Shown: one piece after another, positions 8,834 through 22,030 of the stretch
Position numbering within the stretch: the stretch's first letter is position 1
Layout: every line of letters starts with the position of its first letter
DNA from: Dictyostelium discoideum
Taxonomy: Eukaryota
Direction: 5' to 3'
Length of the DNA: 64,000 bases
Assembly (NCBI GenBank): GCA_000004695.1
Contig: CM000154.2
Coordinates: forward strand, 3,040,001-3,104,000
Position numbers and translations under genes: made by a program
Notes under the pieces: generated by a model
Told to the model about the DNA's origin: nothing
Databases searched by the model: none
Seen by the model: the letters and a program-made list of their open reading frames with translations, nothing else

Positions 8834-9901
8834 ATATACATGTAAAAAAAAAAAAAAAAAAAAAGTGGGGGATTAGTTTTGTTGTGGTTTACACACAAAT
8901 TGAACAATTTAAAGAACTAAAAATTTAAAAAAAAAAAAAAAATAAAAAAAAAAAAAAATATTCGTTATTTTTTTTAAAATTTTCATATTTTTTTTTTTTT
9001 TTTTATAAATTTTTTTTTATTTTTAAATTTAAATCCAAAAAATATATTCTAAAAAAGGAAAAACGAGATATTATTTTTTTTTTTTTTACAATCCCAATAA
9101 AAAAAGAAAAAAAAATTAATTTAAAAAAGGAATTTAAAATATTTTGGAATGTTCATGAACATTTACTATTATTAATTTTTTTTTTTTTTTTTTTTATTTT
9201 GGTATTATTTTTTTTTTTATAATCAAGAATTATTTTTAGAATTTAGTTATTAATTATTTATTTTTTTTTGAAAATTTTTTTTTAGATTTGAAAAAAAAAA
9301 AAAAAGAAAAATTAATTTGGAAAATTATGAATTCCTTATTTTATTTTATCTTTATTTATTTTTTATTAATTTATTTTTTAAGAATAATTATTCCAACTGG
9401 GATCCCACCAACCACGTAGATTTGAAAATTTTTTTTTTTAAATAGTAAGAATTTAATTGATTGAATATTATAGATATTCCTTTTTGTTGTTATTGTAGAT
9501 TAATTTGACCTTCATGTACAGCCTGAATCTTGAATACCAAATTGTCAGTATGATTTGGAGTGAACATGATTTCATATTTTGCCTTTTCTAATGAAAATAA
9601 TTGGGTTTTTATTTTATTTTATTTTTTTTTTTAGGTTAAGATATAGTTTTTATTTTAGTTTTTTTATTTTCATAGAAATAAAGAAAAAAAGTGATTAAAT
9701 TAATTCGAAAAAGATTTTTAATTTATTTATTCAAATCATTTTTTTATTTTTTTATTTATCAATTATTTTATTTTATTATTATTTTTTATTTTTTTATTTT
9801 TTTATTATTTTAATTTTTTATTATTATTACTATTATTTGTATTATTATTTTTATCTTTTTTTTTTTTTTTATTTTTTTTTTTTAATTTTTTTTTATTTTT
9901 T

Positions 9902-12227
9902 TTATTCATCATCAAAGGTCAAAGGAATTTTGTTTTTATTTTGGTTTGTTGATCCTTGAACGGTTTCCAACTGTCTTATTTTTGATTCTAATTCTATAAT
10001 TTTATTTTGCAATATACTAACCTCGCTCTTGTGTAACATTAATGGAAAATTTTCCATCCTAAGTTTTTCATTCATTTTCTTGATCATATGGTCGGTTTTG
10101 TGAGAATAAATTTTTATAAAATTTTTAGGTTCTCTATTATTTGTTACAGTGGCCATTATGGTACCCTTTTTCGATTCAATTGTAAGTGATTGATAATTAA
10201 TTGCTTTAACACTATCATTTGATACAAGGGTCAAATTGCCTGAGGATTTAAATTTTGAATTGGAAATATTTTCTTGTTTTGGAGCAGATAAAGAAATGTT
10301 TTTTCCTGAACACTTAATAAATTGTTTAAAGGAAAGTGTTCCAGATTTTCCAATTGTGTTAATTGAAAATTCTTTTCCTTTGCCATTGACCTCCACATCA
10401 GCAGAAATATTCAATCTACCACATTCTTTAATTAATAATTGAAATGGTTCATCATTTTTTAAATATTCTGTGCCTATTGAGCCATTGCTTATTGTAATCG
10501 AACAATAATTTGATTTGTTTTGGTAACTGATATTTGTACCATTTTCCCCCCTTATTAATAATTTCTTACCTCCATATATCATTATACTATTTCCTTTGGG
10601 CAATTCTACATTGTCTACAGTGACCGAGCCGTTGGAAGTAACAAGTATATCACTAAAAGACGTTAATCCAACCACAACACCAGATTCACCAAAATCTTTT
10701 CCAACATCTATTTTAAAGTTACCATCTTGGTCAATTGATAGATCTCCCTCTAATTTTAACTTATTAATAGGTCCTGTAATTGGATATTTAGGATCGATAT
10801 TAAGTTTTTCACAAATTTTATTAAATGATTCCGAATCACTTGTAATGGAACCGTCTTTTTCGATGCTAATTTCACAACCTTTTTTAATTTCAATTGCAAG
10901 TTTTGTTGAAGTGTTGATGCTACTCTCTACTACATTTAGTTGATATGCAGATTCATATTCTTCTAATAATGTTCTTGAAAATGGTACGTGACTTAATTCA
11001 TTTGAAAAAATGGCAAACAAACAATGACAGTAAGTCATAAAATACCTACAAACTTGATAGCAGTTTGTATCTAGCATTGCATCAGCTTCGGATTTGGAAG
11101 TTTTTTGATTATAAAAAACAATTCTTAGAGTGTTTTTCCAAGTTACTTCTTTTAAACTGTTTTTAAAATTTTCAAATTCAGCCATTGAATTATTCTTTAA
11201 GAATATTTTTTCAAATTCCAATCCAGAGTCACCCAACGATTGCTCGTCATACACAATATTGAAGTGGGAAAATGCATTTCTTAAAAGAACAGAATCTGTA
11301 TTTGAATTTGGTTTTTTGTCAATCCAAACAAAAATTCTAAGAAAAATATCATCCAATAGATGTAAAATCCGTAATCCTTCAAAGGTTTTAGATTGCTTCT
11401 TTTTAACTTTTTCAATGATTTCAGTGTAATAGTATCTAAGGAGGTGAAATTTTTCTTTGATATTAATGTTCTCATTCTGACTTGATTTTTTGAAATCTGA
11501 ATAAACTTGTGACATATCTAAAATTGTTTGACCTATTTGAAATATCCATTTTTTGTATGACTCGTCATCGTTTAGTTTTGAAATTGTTGATCTTAAATAT
11601 TCTGAAATACTTTTGTTAAACCCCGAATTTATTATTTTTGCAGTTTCTCTATAATAATGATAATTAGAAGATAATAAAAATAATAGTTATAATAATAATA
11701 GTTATAATAATAATATTTATAATAATAATAATAATAATAACAATAAAGTTCAATTGAATTATAACTGACTTTTTTTGTTTGTATTACACTTACTCGTTTG
11801 GGTTTGGCTTTTCTAATTTTTCTACATAATTATATTTCATTTTAAAAACTTCAAAGCTATCACTTTCCAAAACAAAATTATCAACTTTTGTTTTATAATC
11901 TCTAATTTTGGAATTCATAATCTGCTTTATAATATCTATTCTTTTATCTTTATCCTGGGTATTTATAATTCTTGTAGCTTGCTTATTATCATTGTCTTTA
12001 TCACCATCAACTATTTTATTTAAATCTTCTTTTTTTAAAATTTTTTCCTGTTCGATTAATGTTTTAAAATAGTAAGATGATAAAACATCACTATATACAT
12101 GATCAAGAAAAAATTCAAAATTTTCAATTGATACCATATCTGATGTTTCGCTCATATCTAAATTTCCATCTTGAGCTGATCCAGACTTAAAAGGAGGAGA
12201 TTTAGTGGGAGTATCTTTATTTATCAT
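9902..12227 (-). CDS. hypothetical protein, about 720 aa (2 exons: 12227..11794, 11648..9902)
   Basis: ORFs 11790..12227 and 9902..11515 are one gene. The donor GTAAGT at 11793 overlaps the apparent stop (ga|gtaagt), and the acceptor ttaTAG at 11649 gives a 145-nt intron. The reading frame stays open from 11648 through the annotated ATG at 11515 (..ETAKIINSGFNKSISEYLRSTISKLNDDESYKKWIFQIGQTILDMSQVYSD..). There is a C-terminal coiled-coil-like segment. No recognisable domain. Confidence 0.55.
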
Positions 12228-12861
12228 TGTGTATTTTTGATTTAAAAAAAAACAAAAAAAAAAAAAAATTTTTAAAAAAATAATTCATCAAAAAAGAAAA
12301 ATTAAAATAATTCTTTTTTTAAAATTTTTTTTTTTTTAAAATTTTCGAGTAGAAAAAAAATGAACTTCCTGTCAGATAAAAACGCGGTTATGAAATTATT
12401 TTTTTTTTGATTTAATTTTTTTTTTTTTTTGAAAAATAAAAAAAATAGATATTTTTAATTGATAAAATAAAAATTTTAAAAAATAATAGTAATTATTTTG
12501 TTTTATTTAAAATTTTTTTATTTAAAAATAAATAAATATAAAAATGAGATATTATTTTTTTTTTTTTTTTTTTTATTTTTTTTTTTTTTAATATCCAATA
12601 AAAAAACAGAAAATAAAAAAAAAAAAATTTATCAAATAAAAAAGAAATTTTAAATTTCCAAAATCTTTTATTTTTTATTCATTTTTCTAAATAATTTAAT
12701 TTTTTTTCTTTTTTTTTTTTTTTTTTTTGAAAACTATTAATTAAATTTTGGTTAAAAATAGTTTTCTTAAAAAAAAAAAAAAGAAAAAAAGAAATATATA
12801 TTTGAACAGAGTTTACTTTTATTTTTATTTTTTTTTTTTTTTTTAAAAAAGCTAAAGAAAA

Positions 12862-13733
12862 TCAATTAAAAAAAACACAGATTAAAGCAAAAGAAATTAT
12901 TGAATTAAAATAGGAAGCTTTAGAATTTGGATGTGGTGATGGTGATGAAGATAATGAAGAAGATGATGATGAAGAAGAGGATGATGATGAAGAATTAACA
13001 ATAAAATTTGTAGTTTTTAATTGTGTTGGATATTGGTATGTATAAATAATTTCAAATTGATTTGATAGATATTGTTTATTATTTGTTTTACAAGTCCATT
13101 GTTTAAAATCAACTTGTACAAAACATTTTAAACTTTCAGATATTGTACCATTATTAAATTTTCCAGTAATTGTCATACCATTATCTTTTGTAGCAATACC
13201 ATTTCTTGGTAATAATGCATCACCTTTGATTGTAATTATATCTTTATTTATATCAATTTCTGATATAGCTTGTTCATTGAATGAAATGGTTACATTTGAA
13301 TCGTAAACACCACCACTTGTTAAAACTGAGTCATTTGAAAATAAAAAGTTAATTACAACTGGTTCAGAAATTGTTAAATTCTTTGGAATTATACAAAAGA
13401 ATGGTCCTCTTATATTACCACCACCTTTTGGAATTACATTACAAGATAGACTAGTTTTTATATTATTTCTATCAATTAATGTTATTGTTGGATCTGGTGA
13501 AGCTATATTGAGTTGAGAGGTACCAGTGGTTAATTGTGATTGTTGATCTTCATTATAATAAAATGAATTTGAATTAATGACTGCACATTTTTTGGTTACA
13601 CTACTGTATGGACAAAATAGTGTAAAATCATATGAAAGATATTCAATAATAAAGCATCTATATTATTATAATTATAATTATTATTTATTTTAATTTTATT
13701 ATTAATTAATAAAAAAAAAAAAATTAATAAAAA

Positions 13734-13771
<38 letters not shown>

Positions 13772-13826
13772 ACCTAGATAGTGAAATAAGAAGGAATAAT
13801 AAAAAAATATTTGTAAATTTCTTCAT
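12862..13826 (-). CDS. secreted Ser-rich protein with C-terminal hydrophobic (GPI-signal-like) tail, about 300 aa (2 exons: 13826..13774, 13657..12862)
   Basis: Exon 1 encodes the signal peptide MKKFTNIFLLFLLISLS. Donor ag|GTAGGT; a 116-nt intron; acceptor aatAG at 13658. Exon 2 is open throughout (..CPYSSVTKKCAV..NGTISESLKCFVQVDFKQWTCKTNNKQYL..) and ends in a 14-Ser run plus ASYFNSIISFALICVFFN*. It has a paralog at 14509..15419. Confidence 0.6.
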
Positions 13827-14508
13827 TTGTGTCTAATTTTAATAAAAAAATTATGTGTAATTTTAAATTTCTTTTTTTTTTTGATTGAAACAAAAAATTA
13901 TATGAGGAAAGAATGAAATAAAAGTTAAAAAAAAATAAAAAGTTTTTTAAATAAGTAAAAAAATAAAGTCTGAGAGAATCTTATAAGAAAAAAAAAAAAA
14001 AATTGATAGTTTTTCTTAGGTTTTTAAGACAAAAATAAAGTTATAGAGAAAAATTTAAAAATCCTTTTGTTTTTTTGAATCATTTATTTTTTTATCTGCA
14101 AAACATCATGATAATATCTTGAACCTTTAAGAAAATTGGTTTTTTTTTTTTTTAATTATTTTTTTATTTTTAATTTGTTTTTTTGGGATAGCACACAAGA
14201 AACACTTCTTTTAATCATTGGAATCATATAAAAATAAAAACACAAATCCTGCCACAAAAAAACTTGTGATCTGCTTTAGATTTGAATTCTTGGATATTTT
14301 TAATTTCTTTTAATTTTTTATTTCTTTTAATTTTTAGAAATAATAATATTGCCACATCTTAAATGCAACATATGCACTAAAATAAAAATAGAATCTAAAT
14401 TTTTGAAATTTTTTTTTTTTTTTTACCCCTTAGAAAAAAAAAAAAAAAAAAGAAATTAAAAAATATTCCACCACCTTTGATGAAAATATTACACCACCTT
14501 TGACGAAA

Positions 14509-15419
14509 ATGAAGAAATTTACAATAGTTTTTTATTATTAATTTTTTTTTTTTTAAAAATTATTAGTTTATATATTTCTATTAAATTTTTTGTTATTAAA
14601 ATATAATAATTATATAGATGCTTTACTCCAGAATATTTTCCATTTAATAGTACACTACATTGTTCATACAATACTAAAACCAAAGAATGTGCAGTTATTA
14701 ATTCATTTTATTATAATGAAGATCAACAATCACAATTAACCACTAATACAAGTAGTAGACTTGGAGTTGCACCAGATCCAACACTAACTTTAATTGATGG
14801 AAATAATATAGCAACTAAATTATCATGCTATATATTCCAACTGGGTGGTGCTATGTTAAGAGGACCATCTTTTTGTGTAATTCCAAAGAATTTAACAATT
14901 TCTGAACCAATTATAATTAATTTTTTATTTCCAAATGGTTCACTTTTAACAACTGATGGTGTTTACGATTAAAATCAAACCATTTCATTCAATGAACAAG
15001 CTATATCAGAAATTGATATAAATAAAGATATAATTACAATCAAAGGTGATGCATTATTACCAAGAAATGGTATTGCTACAAAAGATAAATTTAATAATGG
15101 TACAATATCTGAAAGTTTAAAATGTTTGGTAGAAATTGATATTAAACAATGGACTTGTAAAACAAATAATCAAAAATATCTATCAAATCAATTTGAAATT
15201 ATTTATACATACCAATATCCAAAACAATTAAAAACTACAAATTTTATTGTTAATTCATCATCATCATCTTCATCATCATCTTCATCATCTTTTTCTTCAC
15301 CATCATCATATTCTTCATTATCCTCATCACCACCATCACATCCAAATTCTAAAGCTTCCTATTTTAATTCAATAATTTCTTTTGCTTTAATCTGTGTTTT
15401 TTTAATTGATTTTCTTTAG
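14509..15419 (+). pseudogene. degenerate inverted paralog of the 12862..13826 secreted Ser-rich protein gene
   Basis: Exon 2 (from acceptor atatAG at 14617) is collinear and about 85-90% identical to the minus-strand copy. It carries an in-frame TAA at 14970..14972 (TCA in the intact copy) and a 21-nt in-frame deletion (missing NGMTITG). The exon-1 equivalent (ATG 14509, MKKFTIVFYY*) has lost the signal-peptide frame and has no GT donor. Confidence 0.55.
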
Positions 15420-15771
15420 AATATAGCTATTACAGAGCTCTACTCGAAATCAATTTATTTATATTTCATTGCAAAAATCCCGAATAAACTCGATCTTTCT
15501 AAAAAAAATTTCTTTTTTTCATTATCTCAATTATTCACAGAAAGGTCCATTTCCAACTAGTATAAAAAAAATTAAAAATAAAAATAAAATAAAAAAAAGT
15601 CATTTTTAGTACTTATTTTATTTTATTTTAATTTTTTTTTTATTTTCACATTTTTTATTTTATTTTTTTTTTTTTTTTATTTTATTTTTTTTTTCAATTT
15701 TTTTTTTTTTTTTTTTTTTTTGTTATGTGTGATCACATGATTTTTTTTTTTTTCCAAAACAATAAGAAGAA

Positions 15772-16586
15772 ATGGAAAAAGGGTTATCATCTGATTTAAT
15801 CATTGCATTTGTTGCAATTGTTTTACATGTTGTCAATTATAATGTTACAGCACAATTCGAATATAAAACTAGATATTTTACAAAGGTATTTATAATTTAT
15901 AATTCAAAATTTATAATCATTATTATTAATTATTAATTTATTGTTATATTAATTAATTAATTATTTCAATAATAATAATAATTATAATAATTTGAAACTA
16001 GTTAATTGGTAGAAATGCAATTTACTATTATGCAGTTTTTTTAATTATTTCAGCATTAATTAGAGATCATTTTATCAATGTTGCAGTATTATCAGATAAA
16101 GATTCAATCATATTATTCCCAACTGAAATTGCAAATATGATTGGTGATAGTTGTTTTATTTTTGGTATTTTATTAAATATTTGGACTTTAAAAGCATTGG
16201 GAATTAAAGGAATGTATAATGGTGATAGTTTTGGTCACATTATGGACTCACCAGTAACTGGTGGACCATATCAATTTTTCAGTGATCCACAATATGTTGG
16301 TACTACTATCGCTGCTTTAGGTGTTGCTATTAGAAATCAAAGTATTTATGGATTCTGTAAGTTTTATTTTTTTAATAATAATAATAATAATAATTTTGAA
16401 GAAATTTTATTAACTGTAATAATTTTTTTAATTTTTTTTTTTTTTTTTTTAGTATGTACAATTTTGGTAGGTGTTGTTTTTTACATTTCAGCTACATTTG
16501 TTGAGACACCACATTTGAAAAATATTTATTCAAATAGATCTTATTCAAAAATCAACTTTAAAAATTTAAAATCATTAAAAAATTAA
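15772..16586 (+). CDS. phospholipid (phosphatidylethanolamine) N-methyltransferase, PEMT/PLMT family (3 exons: 15772..15885, 16002..16356, 16453..16586)
   Basis: GDSFGHIM..PVTGGPYQFFSDPQYVGTTIAALGVAI..VETPHLKNIYS matches the PEMT motifs [37 protein letters not shown]. Introns are GTATTT..ctAG (116 nt) and GTAAGT..tttAG (96 nt, in frame so the ORF track reads through it). The product is about 200 aa, typical for PEMT. Confidence 0.65.
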
Positions 16587-17843: not shown

Positions 17844-18475
17844 TGTTAAAAGATTATATAATCAATATATTTAAAAAAAAACTAAAATTAAAATTAATAA
17901 AAATAAAAACCAACTTTTGTGGTTTGGCCTAAAAAAAAAAAAAATTAAAAATTAAAAATAAAAAATAAAATCATGATTTTATTTTCATCAAAAAAAAAAA
18001 TTAAATAAAATCAAAAAAATTGTTTTTTTTTGTTTTTTTTTTTATTTTTTTTTTATATTAATTTTATATGGAAAAAAAAAAATAGTGAAAAATTAAAAAA
18101 TAATTGATTATAATAAATTCATTATTAAATTATTTTATTATTTATTGTCATTTTTTTAAGATTTTTCTTTGGATCTCTTATTGGTTTAAACAAATTTATA
18201 ATATAGCCTACAACACACCATGTTTTGTGGTGTTTTTCTTGAACACTATCCATATCAATCGATCCTACTGAAAATTTATATCTTAGTGGCATACTTGTAA
18301 TAAATCATGATCAATTTTTATTTTTTATTTTTTATTTTTTTATTTTTATTTTTCAAATTACAAACAAACTTTGGGTGTTTTTTTTTTTAAAAAATAAAAT
18401 AGAATACTCAAATGGGTTGGAATAAATTTAAATCTTTTTTTTTTTCTTTCAAATTTTGAAAATGAAAAAATCGAG

Positions 18476-18612
18476 GTCAGATGGTGAAGTTACTTTTTTT
18501 TTGAATTGGATAACGCAATTATTAGTTGCTTCTCCTTGAGATACTAGATCCCATTTTATTTTTAGTTTTTTTTTTTTTTTTTTTTTTAAAGGGTGTATAA
18601 AAGAGGGGTTAG

Positions 18613-18657
<45 letters not shown>

Positions 18658-18929
18658 TTTCGAATTTTGAATTGTATTATTACTTTTGATTAAAACATCT
18701 TTTTTGTCCAAATTTTTTTCTAAATCTTTTTTTATTTTATCATCAGCTTCATGATTGATGTTGATGACATATTTGAATTGTTTTTTTTTTGTTTGAGTTT
18801 TATCCACAATTTCCCTTATTTTTTGTAGGCATTTGTGTTGCTTAATATTTGTGGGGTTGTTTGTAATTTTCATCTTTTTTTCTTTCTATTTTTTTTATTT
18901 TACTTTGAAAAGTTAAAAATCTGGAAATT
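18476..18929 (-). repeat. about 470-bp repeat unit, copy 1 (retroelement-associated module; continues across the N gap to about 19070)
   Basis: About 90% identical to 19386..19870. It starts with GGTCAGATGGTG (the first 12 nt of the tRNA-Val at 21365) fused to AAGTTACTT, and it is bounded by long poly-T. It carries the small ORF 18586..18873. Confidence 0.6.
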
Positions 18930-19029
18930 NNNNNNNNNNNNNNNNNNNNNNNNNNNNNNNNNNNNNNNNNNNNNNNNNNNNNNNNNNNNNNNNNNNNNNN
19001 NNNNNNNNNNNNNNNNNNNNNNNNNNNNN
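18930..19029. other. assembly gap (100 N)
   Basis: A run of N characters, conventionally a 100-bp scaffold gap placed inside the repeat. Confidence 0.95.
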
Positions 19030-19061
19030 TTGGAAATTTCCTGATTAACTTAGGTTCCCCG

Positions 19062-19113
<52 letters not shown>

Positions 19114-19385
19114 TTTTTTATTTTTTTTTTTTTTAAGTCTTTTTTATATGAAAAATGAAACAATCAAAAAAAGAGATTGTTGTTGTTGTTTGTTTTTTCG
19201 ATCTGATTATTTTTTGCTTTTTTTTTGAAAATTTTCAAAACGAAACAAATAATAAATTACAACAAAGTAAAAAGATGGCTTTTTAAAATAGTTTATTTAT
19301 TTATTTATTTGTTTTTTAAGTCTTTTTTATATGAAAAATGAAACAATCAAAAAAAGAGATTGTTGTTGTTTGTTTTTTTCGATCT

Positions 19386-19397
19386 CTGATGGTGAAG

Positions 19398-19438
<41 letters not shown>

Positions 19439-19526
19439 AATTGGATAACGCAATTATTAGTTGCTTCTCCTTGAGATGTTAGATCTCATTTTATTTTTAG
19501 TTTACAGGGTCTCTAAGAGGGGTTGG

Positions 19527-19565
<39 letters not shown>

Positions 19566-19855
19566 TTTCGAATTTTGAATTGTATTATTACTTTTGATTA
19601 AAACATCTTTTTTGTCCAAACTTTTTTCTAAATCTTTTTTTATTTTATCGTCTGGTTCGTGATTGATGTTTATGACGTATTTGAATTGTTTTTTTTTAAT
19701 TGAGTTTTATCCACAATTTCGCTTATTTTTTGTAGGCATTTGTGTTGCTTAATATTTGTGGTGTTGTTTGTGATTTTCATTTTATTTTCTTTCTATCTTT
19801 TTATTTTTCTTTAAAAAGTTAAAAATCTGGAAATTTTCTGATTAACTTGGGTTCC

Positions 19856-19870
<15 letters not shown>
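19386..19870 (-). repeat. about 470-bp repeat unit, copy 2 (frameshifted relative to copy 1)
   Basis: Collinear with copy 1, including GATGGTGAAGTTAC, TTGAATTGGATAACGCAATTATTAGTTGCTTCTCCTTGAGAT and the terminal CTGGAAATTTTCTGATTAACTTGGGTTCCCAGG. About 70-bp sub-repeats (AAGTCTTTTTTATATGAAAAATGAAACAATCAAAAAAAGAGATTGTTG..) lie at 19131..19200 and 19318..19386. Confidence 0.6.
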
Positions 19871-19908
<38 letters not shown>

Positions 19909-19970
19909 GGTGAAGTTTTTTTTTTTTTTTTAATAACATCACTCAATTTGAGTGTGTTCTAGGAGAGTTT

Positions 19971-20019
<49 letters not shown>

Positions 20020-20039
20020 CTTGTTATTCTTATTTTTTT

Positions 20040-20134
20040 TATTATTATTATTATTATTATATTATTATTATTATTATATTATTATTATTATATTATTATT
20101 ATTATTATATTATTATTATTATTATTATTGTTAT

Positions 20135-20169
<35 letters not shown>

Positions 20170-21330
20170 AGTAGTTGGTGTTATATGAGCAGTATGGTAT
20201 GAAGTGTTCCGGGATGTTTATGGTCATGAGTTTCGAGTTCCAGTTGTGGCTGAATTTTTCGAGTCTTCTTTTTATTGATGCGGTCCGATTGATTGACTCT
20301 CGGTTATCAGTGCATCTTAGTTCTTGACGTAGTTGTTTTTCTACTATCTTTCTTGTTCTATCCCATTCGGCATCTCTCGCTTTTTTGATTTTATGAATTA
20401 TTTGGTTCTCTGTTATTATTGTAGTGTTATCGTTGAATTTTATTTGATTTCTTCTGTACCATATCGATTCCATAATGGCTCCTATCAGATTTGATGAGAA
20501 TGGTGTGAGTAGTTTTCCGAGAACTTTTTCGCTCCATGGACCGTGGTAAGTGTTGTTGGAGTCTTTACAGACCTTTTGATAGATTGAGTCGATATTCTGT
20601 TTTATTGATTTGCATTCGAAGAAGATGTGCATAGACGATTCTTCTTCTTTACATGAGTGGCAATTCTCCCCATGGTGTTTTGGAAGTGCCTTGATTAGAT
20701 ATCTCCATGCTAAGTCTCTTCCTTTGATAGTTGTGATTGATCTGGCTTCTCTAAATGGTAGAATTGGGTGATTAATGTTCTTTTGAATCAGTTTTTGACC
20801 TGTTGTTGGCTGGTGTTTGTTCCATCCCTTGTATTTGATATCCATCATGTTTCTATAGATTACTTTTAATTTTTGTTTGTTTTCGTATTTGGGTTTGACT
20901 TGGTTTAGTTTGAGAGTTATTCGCTCTCTTGGGTGGTGCAACAACTTCCAGGCTTTCCAGCATTTGATGTGAATCCTTGATAGTGAGTTTTCTTTTTCCG
21001 ACTTCCAGACTTCCATATGTGGAGGGCAGTTCTGGTCGTCTTTTTCTCTGAGGTATTGTTCGTATATCCATGCTTTCTGGGCATTGGATCTGGTTGCCAT
21101 ATTCCAGAGTTCCAGGCCTCCAATTTCATAGTCTCTTCTGCTCCTTTCTTTTGAGATAGCCCACCTGTCCCCTTTGAATAACATGTTGGCATTAACGTTC
21201 TCCAGTTTCTTTATGTCATTTATTTCGTTGATGTATAGTTGGAATGTTAGTTGGGACAGGAGGTATGATTTGAGGATTGTGATTCTACCTTTTAGCGTTG
21301 ATGACACGCTCGAGTAGCATTGGTGAAGTT
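20040..21330 (-). mobile_element. 5'-truncated non-LTR (LINE-like, TRE-type) retrotransposon fragment: ORF2 C-terminal region, with a 3' poly(A) and (AAT)n tail
   Basis: The 380-aa ORF (20165..21307) has near-balanced base composition, unlike the host. It contains a Cys/His-rich motif (HHGENCHSCKEEESSMHIFFECKS) typical of the LINE ORF2 C-terminus. The stop is immediately followed by an A-run on the minus strand (T-run 20141..20166) and (AAT)n. It lies 5' of, and head-to-head with, tRNA-Val. Confidence 0.6.
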
Positions 21331-21364
21331 ACTTATAATACTACGATAGCAATAGATTTTGCAA

Positions 21365-21438
21365 GGTCAGATGGTGTAGTCGGTTATCACGGTTGCTTTA
21401 CACGCAACAGGTCTCGAGTTCGATCCTCGGTCAGATCA
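21365..21438 (+). tRNA. tRNA-Val (anticodon UAC)
   Basis: It folds as a cloverleaf: acceptor GGTCAGA/TCAGATC (one A-A mismatch at 5-68), D arm GTGT-AGTCGGTTA-TCAC, anticodon arm GTTGC-TTTACAC-GCAAC (anticodon TAC), variable loop AGGTC, T arm TCGAG-TTCGATC-CTCGG, discriminator A. The D arm (GTGT/TCAC) and the ACAC after the anticodon match eukaryotic tRNA-Val. Confidence 0.75.
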
Positions 21439-21464
21439 TATGTTGGTATAAATTTGTGTATTTT

Positions 21465-21513
21465 ACGAACTTCGGGTTTTACAGGTAAAAAAAAAAAAAC
21501 GAACTTCGGGTTT
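21465..21513 (+). mobile_element. minimal retroposition footprint: a 15-bp direct repeat (ACGAACTTCGGGTTT) flanking TACAGGT plus A12-13
   Basis: Perfect 15-bp direct repeats at 21465..21479 and 21499..21513 bracket a short sequence ending in poly(A), 27 bp downstream of the tRNA 3' end. This is a TSD plus poly(A) signature of target-primed reverse transcription. Confidence 0.45.
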
Positions 21514-21539
21514 AATGCCAATATTGATATAAGGAACAC

Positions 21540-22030
21540 AATTAATATTAAATGAATGCTGTTAAACCTGAATCAAAACTAACTTTATTTTTTCAGTTTT
21601 CATAGTTTTCGAGTTTTAGTTATTTTCGAGAAGTTTCTAAAATATATAAAACTAAATAAATTAATTATTTTTATTATTATTGTTTGCAACAGTTGGTTCA
21701 AAACATTGGTGGCAAATAACTAGATACAAAAACAATAAATGTTTTAATAGAATTACACCTATAATTCCTCCAAATATAATATATCATGAGGTTAACATAG
21801 ACTACTCAAAGAATACTTTGAAGGGTATAAATTTGTAAATTATAATTTCTATATAATGTCTTTGATAATTCATAACATTTGGATTCAGGTATAGTAATAA
21901 AAAATCAAAAAAATTAAATCAAACTGTTTAGAGACCCAAAAGATTTCCTAAACAAATAATAAAATTAAGAAAACTATTCAAGTGTCAGAGCTTCCAAACA
22001 TTTTTACTTTGACTAATTCATTTTATTAAT
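21540..22030. mobile_element. GC-richer non-host-like segment downstream of the tRNA (possible degenerate retroelement fragment)
   Basis: Its composition (about 35-40% GC, no homopolymer runs) contrasts with the flanking AT-rich DNA. There is no long ORF. It lies about 100 bp 3' of tRNA-Val, where Dictyostelium TRE3-type elements insert. Confidence 0.25.

Follow-up and report, generated by a model that had tools for sequence, protein, structure and literature searches.

A close described parallel to the locus studied here is the tgr family of Dictyostelium, for which birth-and-death evolution, inversions and pseudogenes have been reported (PMC12745789, Holland et al.; bioRxiv 10.1101/2025.10.22.684067). 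The first of these papers presents long-read genomes of AX2-214, CR116C, OT3A, M4B, S6B, D. citrinum, D. dimigraformum and others. According to this work CR116C and OT3A are tropical, have diverged from AX4, form macrocysts with AX2 and are placed provisionally in D. discoideum, and M4B and S6B are possible cryptic species (PMC12745789). We analyzed a 64,000-nucleotide stretch of the D. discoideum genome (assembly GCA_000004695.1, contig CM000154.2, positions 3,040,001 to 3,104,000; hereafter the window), in which two related genes, copy A (12862-13826, minus strand) and copy B (14509-15419, plus strand), lie head to head beside PEMT. Like the tgr family, this locus varies in copy number, orientation and functional status among close isolates, apparently through local duplication, inversion and recombination. 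Copy B resembles the pseudogenes tgrB_ps and tgrC_ps1 in being a paralogue left in place, with a promoter, an intron remnant and nonsense and indel lesions. Unlike the tgrBC hotspot, the locus studied here is small and comprises two genes, and its products are not Tgr proteins of the TgrB1/TgrC1 type: the family members are about 280 residues long (282 for A), match no Pfam domain, IPT/TIG included, have no transmembrane domain and end in a tail of the glycosylphosphatidylinositol (GPI) type. We consider it probable that A and B are old paralogues from a Dictyostelium-only gene family, that B is a pseudogene, and that the locus records ordinary birth-and-death turnover in a neatly resolvable form.

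Three further kinds of system offer a comparison. In palindrome arms and other inverted duplicate genes, interlocus conversion produces discordant phylogenies along the gene, identity tracts and a local deficit of synonymous differences. Unlike in true palindromes, conversion between A and B appears to be restricted to the 3' half, while the 5' half is still diverged. Prespore antigen (PsA) and the ponticulin-like proteins combine a signal peptide, a Cys-containing globular domain, a Ser/Pro stalk and a GPI-type tail. Copy A has a similar build, but no similarity in sequence between its family and any described one was detected. Finally, the distribution of the two copies resembles reciprocal loss of duplicates, with one lineage keeping A and a dead B and the other keeping B without A, here at the scale of one syntenic locus and a few assemblies.

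A sequence-only reading of the window had proposed two head-to-head copies of a gene for a secreted, Ser-rich, GPI-like protein. This pairing is borne out by the inverted arms, two of which (324 and 244 nucleotides, nt) reach an identity of 88% and the others 93% (125 nt) and 74% (134 nt), far above chance. The G+C content of the window is about 20%, and its intergenic DNA is of the poly(A)/poly(T) kind. B runs collinear with A, and its lesions, all given here on the plus strand, are directly visible. The exon 1 remnant (14509..14541) opens with the same start as A (ATGAAGAAATTTACAA at 14509) and consists of the ATG, nine further codons and TAA (MKKFTIVFYY-stop). Its 3' part, with the signal peptide's hydrophobic core and the GT donor, is deleted, in agreement with the decay described earlier. 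The intron remnant (14542..14617) keeps the acceptor ATATAG, with its AG at 14616-14617. In the exon 2 homologue (14618..15419), which aligns collinearly with both A and the intact orthologues, the frame is broken only by an in-frame TAA at 14970..14972, where a C-to-A change at 14971 has altered a TCA (Ser) codon that A and all orthologues retain. Both the TCA-to-TAA change and a 21-nt deletion had been pointed out in the sequence-only reading. The deletion is in frame, has its junction at 15086..15087 and removes NGMTIT(G/A). A 6-nt deletion at 14699..14700 was found in addition; here slippage converted AATTCAAATTCA to AATTCA with loss of Asn-Ser.

These lesions are not sequencing errors, because the independent chromosome-level assembly GCA_054883475.1 (CM142511.1) carries an identical B, which also answers the earlier advice to verify the TAA in other data. 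The two assemblies are 99.8% identical over 12 kb around the locus, their differences within 12000-16000 are confined to two homopolymer stretches, both outside B, and the sequence of B across 14363-15419 agrees base for base. Together with the base composition and the Dictyostelium origin of every homologue of the protein, this match assigns the window to D. discoideum of the lab-strain type. Because the signal peptide and the splice donor are lost and an in-frame TAA is present, a peptide of at most 10 codons could be made from B. We conclude that B is a genuine non-processed pseudogene with recent decay. It shares 90% of its nucleotides with A and, over the 5' part of exon 2, 96-97% with its intact orthologues, and it retains the intron remnant with its acceptor as well as an upstream region (14240..14508) that can be aligned with the promoters of those orthologues, including conserved blocks such as CACAAAAAAACTTGTGATCTGCTTTAGAT and CCACATCTTAAATGCAAC. 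The claim of recent pseudogenization thus stands: B is still 96-97% identical to an intact gene, and its 21-nt deletion interrupts a tract that is otherwise identical to A.

The assembly that confirms the lesions also annotates a gene model of 256 residues over B (window 14363-15419), and this raises the question of whether B could still be a working gene, expressed through an unconventional model or by stop-codon read-through. Besides the annotation itself, such a reading could draw on the still alignable promoter and on an exon 2 frame that is open save for the TAA, both internal deletions being multiples of three. However, no GT-AG model with up to 3-4 introns of at least 20 nt yields a 256-residue product ending at 15419. 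A canonical solution is therefore lacking, and the arbitrary non-canonical junctions that would be required give about 1000 meaningless solutions. An intron across the TAA would be about 42 nt long and would lie inside conserved coding sequence. Between the ATG of A and the acceptor of B (13830-14600) there is no ATG-initiated phase-2 exon with a GT donor, and because no usable signal-peptide exon lies upstream, a product of B could not enter the secretory pathway. We regard a working B as highly improbable, and the 256-residue annotation is most likely an artefact. The B-derived open reading frames (ORFs) of 97 and 39 residues gave no record when looked up in public read assemblies. The feature that had been expected to mislead annotation, the frame at 15126..15419, is indeed open, but it starts with TTG, contains no ATG and counts as an ORF under bacterial start rules only. 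The warning itself was apt: window 14363-15419 deserves a pseudogene flag, as at least one public assembly lists it as a 256-residue coding gene.

Copy A, read on the minus strand, is a two-exon gene with a spliced product of 282 residues, the length also annotated in GCA_054883475.1; it is intact and, as judged from its sequence, presumably functional. The signal-peptide exon and the GTAGGT intron of the sequence-only reading are both found, at 13826..13774 and 13773..13658. Exon 1 (13774..13826, 53 nt) encodes the signal peptide MKKFTNIFLLFLLISLS and breaks off two bases into an Arg codon; the orthologues P0001 and P0002 have this exon as well. The 116-nt intron (13658..13773) begins with GTAGGT, ends with ATATAG and is very A+T-rich; in GCA_054883475.1 its donor is GTAGTT and its T-run is shorter than in the window. 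Exon 2 (12862..13657) has 264 codons and a TGA, which makes 265 codons and not the 290 given before, and the Ser stalk it encodes numbers 13 residues rather than 14. Apart from this stalk, the protein shows a signal peptide, seven Cys residues in its mature part, five N-X-S/T sequons and a hydrophobic C-terminal tail. Judged by eye, the N-terminus (MKKFTNIFLLFLLISLS-RC) has the classical n/h/c layout of a signal peptide, and the C-terminal pattern (...NSKASYFNSIISFALICVFF(N) in A, where a frameshift has shortened the tail; ...CVFLIDFL in B as in the orthologues) fits a GPI signal.

The age of the pair is best judged from how the similarity between A and B is distributed. A collinear identity of 85-90% had been estimated, and a global alignment does give 90% across aligned bases, but this average hides a mosaic: within exon 2 the identity is 76-77% over the first 250 nt, 88% over the next 100 and 95-97% over the following 325. 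B and the intact single-copy gene of two diverged isolates, in contrast, are 96-97% identical at the DNA level throughout exon 2. At the protein level, the 5' part of exon 2 in B agrees with P0001 and with the gene of 277 residues at 92-95%, against 65% between A and B. Protein trees change accordingly along the gene, with the N-terminal half grouping B with the two single-copy genes (100% bootstrap) and the C-terminal half grouping A with B (72% bootstrap). Synonymous divergence (dS) and its ratio to nonsynonymous divergence (dN/dS) were estimated by the Nei-Gojobori method. In the N-terminal half, dS is 0.195 between A and B, 0.096 between B and its orthologue, and 0.16-0.18 between either copy and the D. 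cf. discoideum gene; in the C-terminal half, dS between A and B is 0.017. In the N half the two paralogues differ at 13 of 77 synonymous sites, as against 1 of 59 for the C half (Fisher p = 0.004), a contrast that is not present in the comparisons with D. cf. discoideum.

Since the distance between A and B in the N half is as large as that to the D. cf. discoideum gene, the paralogues are old; A and B would be roughly as old as the split from that lineage, their 3' halves having apparently been homogenized by gene conversion. Phylogenetic discordance along the gene and a paralogue-specific synonymous deficit together with identity tracts are the pattern of interlocus conversion. A first putative tract of 150 nt (14978..15127, plus strand) matches A 13121-13291 at every position but for the 21-nt deletion. 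Within it B differs from its own orthologue at four sites, and at alignment columns 636 and 702 the two paralogues have derived bases in common. A second putative tract of 67 nt (15337..15403, plus strand) is identical to A 12869-12935 and lies next to a Ser/Pro-tract insertion that A and B have in common and the orthologues lack. The 21-nt deletion arose after the first tract had last been converted.

The mosaic bears directly on the origin of the head-to-head layout, which the sequence-only reading had taken for an inverted duplication of a single gene. A recent event of this kind, with one copy quickly disabled, would agree with the opposed orientation of the copies, their overall identity of 90%, the identical 3' tracts and a homology that ends near the gene borders. 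Uniform arms and duplicated flanks would then be expected, as would common descent of A and B after the split from their nearest relatives. Instead the 5' part of exon 2 has fallen to 76-77%, with a dS double that between B and its orthologue, and the N-terminal half places B with that orthologue and apart from A. The upstream regions of the two copies are unrelated, homology between A and B stopping at the ATG: the region upstream of A (13827..14239) finds no homologous sequence at the relatives' syntenic loci, and presumably comprises the old B-A intergenic region together with the A promoter. B has its own intact orthologue, promoter included, in other isolates, which already contradicts a recent duplication, and the relatives have direct copies, none of them an inverted one. 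We therefore think it very unlikely that the pair arose in this way; the duplication, unlike the pseudogenization, does not appear to be recent.

Synteny adds a further line of evidence. A protein search returned eight homologues, all from group-4 Dictyostelium, and every relative has its family gene or genes beside PEMT, on the strand divergent from it. GCA_054859355.1 and GCA_054859385.1, labelled D. discoideum but diverged (about 90% identity to the window over the flanks, 98.7-98.8% in the PEX11 coding sequence), have a single family gene of 276 or 277 residues. These two B-keeping isolates are presumably CR116C and OT3A, and the assemblies compared here very probably stem from the long-read project of PMC12745789. 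D. cf. discoideum has a single family gene followed by a gene that we call X, D. citrinum has a single family gene at the PEMT locus, and D. dimigraforme has five direct tandem copies beside PEMT. A copy pointing the opposite way is found only in the window and in the near-identical GCA_054883475.1. If PEMT is placed on the minus strand, the genes there follow one another as PEMT(-), B(-), A(+), X(+). The difference in orientation is directly observed: the single gene of the two B-keeping isolates matches B, including about 270 nt upstream, yet is inverted relative to the flanks and so has the orientation of A. The minimal segment inverted with respect to their locus is 14240..15431, and the unique sequence at 15432-15651 may be a co-inverted 3' flank of B. 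In D. cf. discoideum, as in the window, gene X adjoins A, and A and gene X (window ~9237-12853) have no counterpart at the locus in the two B-keeping isolates.

From these observations the head-to-head layout most likely goes back to an old tandem pair of which one copy was inverted, and the order of events may be sketched as follows. An old tandem duplication beside PEMT would have given B, proximal to PEMT, and A, whose N-terminal halves then diverged fast, with dN/dS above 1. In the lineage of the window, B would have been inverted together with its promoter, on a segment of about 1.2-1.4 kb, to give the present arrangement, and gene conversion between A and B would have homogenized the 3' half, after which B gained its lesions, the 21-nt deletion postdating the last conversion. 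In the sister lineage, represented by the two diverged D. discoideum isolates, A and gene X would have been deleted and B would have stayed intact. We favor this history because it needs one rearrangement per lineage and because all outgroups have the direct orientation.

Several findings weigh against this account. The single gene of the other isolates has B-type sequence and a B-type promoter at the position and in the orientation of A. The breakpoints of the supposed inversion carry no diagnostic repeats, and a search of its borders for repeats or transposon remnants returned poly(A)/poly(T) matches only. In the two B-keeping isolates, the absence of an A-type copy applies to the roughly 20 kb examined at each locus. 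Between species, too, the C half shows the stronger conservation, which explains part of the high identity between A and B there. B has acquired 8 nonsynonymous and 5 synonymous changes of its own against 14 and 6 in the orthologue lineage; these counts, few as they are and in a fast-evolving family, give no sign of relaxed constraint and say little about it either way. Copy A itself is not flawless, a point missed when it was described as intact: although the two-exon structure and the hydrophobic tail hold, a T8 run on its coding strand (12868..12875, minus strand; T7 in B and the orthologues, the same T8 in GCA_054883475.1) causes a +1 frameshift, through which the GPI-type tail loses a few residues (...CVFFN-stop, compared with ...CVFLI(D/N/S)(F/I)L-stop elsewhere). 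That A is functional and B silent would be a reading of their sequences.

The first two of these findings could be accommodated if the head-to-head arrangement were ancestral in the discoideum clade and the other isolates had been rearranged, by inversion and deletion or by recombination between the inverted copies. Shuffling of this type can follow recombination between inverted repeats and would place a B-type gene in the position of A, and the absence of a signature at the breakpoints in the window would be expected. This scheme, on the other hand, requires the sister lineage to have undergone two or more events, compared with one in the lineage of the window, and D. cf. discoideum, D. citrinum and D. 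dimigraforme have direct-orientation copies only beside PEMT. Furthermore, the gene of the other isolates is B-like to its last codons and is not the chimera of a B 5' part and an A 3' part that a crossover would leave. We consider an ancestral head-to-head arrangement unlikely, and continue to prefer the inversion of B within an old tandem pair.

The encoded protein family has homologues in Dictyostelium only. Searches found no Pfam family at E <= 1 and no match among PDB sequences, and a profile search of 1.84 billion representatives recovered the family itself and P0009 only. P0009 was rejected as a homologue, its match being an artefact of a 21-fold tandem repeat. By these searches the family is an orphan that belongs to the D. 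discoideum group. Modeling with AlphaFold on a nine-sequence alignment gives an all-beta C-terminal domain (residues ~119-220) with a predicted local distance difference test score (pLDDT) of 76-89, in a model that is weak overall (mean pLDDT 59.5), which counts against leaning on it heavily. The structural matches of this domain are Ig-like, E-set and IPT/TIG only, and it is probably an Ig-like beta-sandwich as modeled. Taken together with the features of A, the members are predicted to be small secreted, N-glycosylated surface proteins, probably anchored by GPI.

Throughout the N-terminal half, dN/dS is 1.1-1.4 in all paralogue and between-species comparisons, which hints at diversifying selection or at weak constraint. 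Because of this ratio and of the reciprocal sorting of A and B, the family could conceivably act as a cell-cell recognition or compatibility factor, the sorting contributing to incipient divergence within D. discoideum, an idea that we hold to be very doubtful. Should the family act in cell-cell interaction, reciprocal retention and the fast N-terminal half would become biologically interesting. Independently of function, the locus is of use mainly for annotation and comparative genomics, as a compact resolved example of birth-and-death, inversion, partial conversion and differential loss of paralogues among very close isolates.

Some smaller features of the two copies and their relatives complete the description. 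Immediately upstream of B, a tandem duplication that is specific to this copy (14460..14510, plus strand) comprises 2.2 copies of the unit ATTACACCACCTTTGAYGAAAAT with 92% matches and ends in the B ATG. It had been recognized before, and is real and single-copy in the orthologues, but its period is 23 and not 22. The intact orthologues have an in-frame ATG two codons 5' of the annotated start (GATGAAAATGAAG, MKMKKF...), and this extra ATG is lost in the proximal repeat copy of B (GACGAAAATG, around window 14480-14511). In GCA_054859385.1 (L007 2998-3400) a B-type upstream block homologous to 14240-14416 is itself tandemly duplicated, with about 200 bp present twice. At the 3' end of A, the original TAG stop is still present in the old frame beyond the T-run.

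Among the relatives, three of the five copies in D. dimigraforme (GCA_054859025.1, L011 4666-16292) are annotated as separate genes, and the other two lie inside one model of 503 residues (12668-16571) that is probably a fused mis-annotation. The syntenic copy of D. citrinum, P0004 (L013 8001-8851), is annotated with 227 residues and is without the third-Cys segment, the Ser stalk and the hydrophobic tail; it may represent a further copy in decay or an error of the model. Another D. citrinum copy, P0006, is complete and lies at an unrelated locus (L012). Gene X contains an ORF at 9902-11515, is annotated with 726 residues in GCA_054883475.1 and has no Pfam match; in D. cf. discoideum, where it is partly present, it has 387 residues. 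Further along the window, the region at ~17956-21778 has no strong collinear match in GCA_054859355.1, and its G+C content rises to 0.32 at 20001-22000. It contains a 380-codon ORF without a Pfam match (20165-21307, minus strand) and the sole tRNA gene of the window, a tRNA-Val at 21365-21438, and the region could be a lineage-specific insertion next to this tRNA gene.

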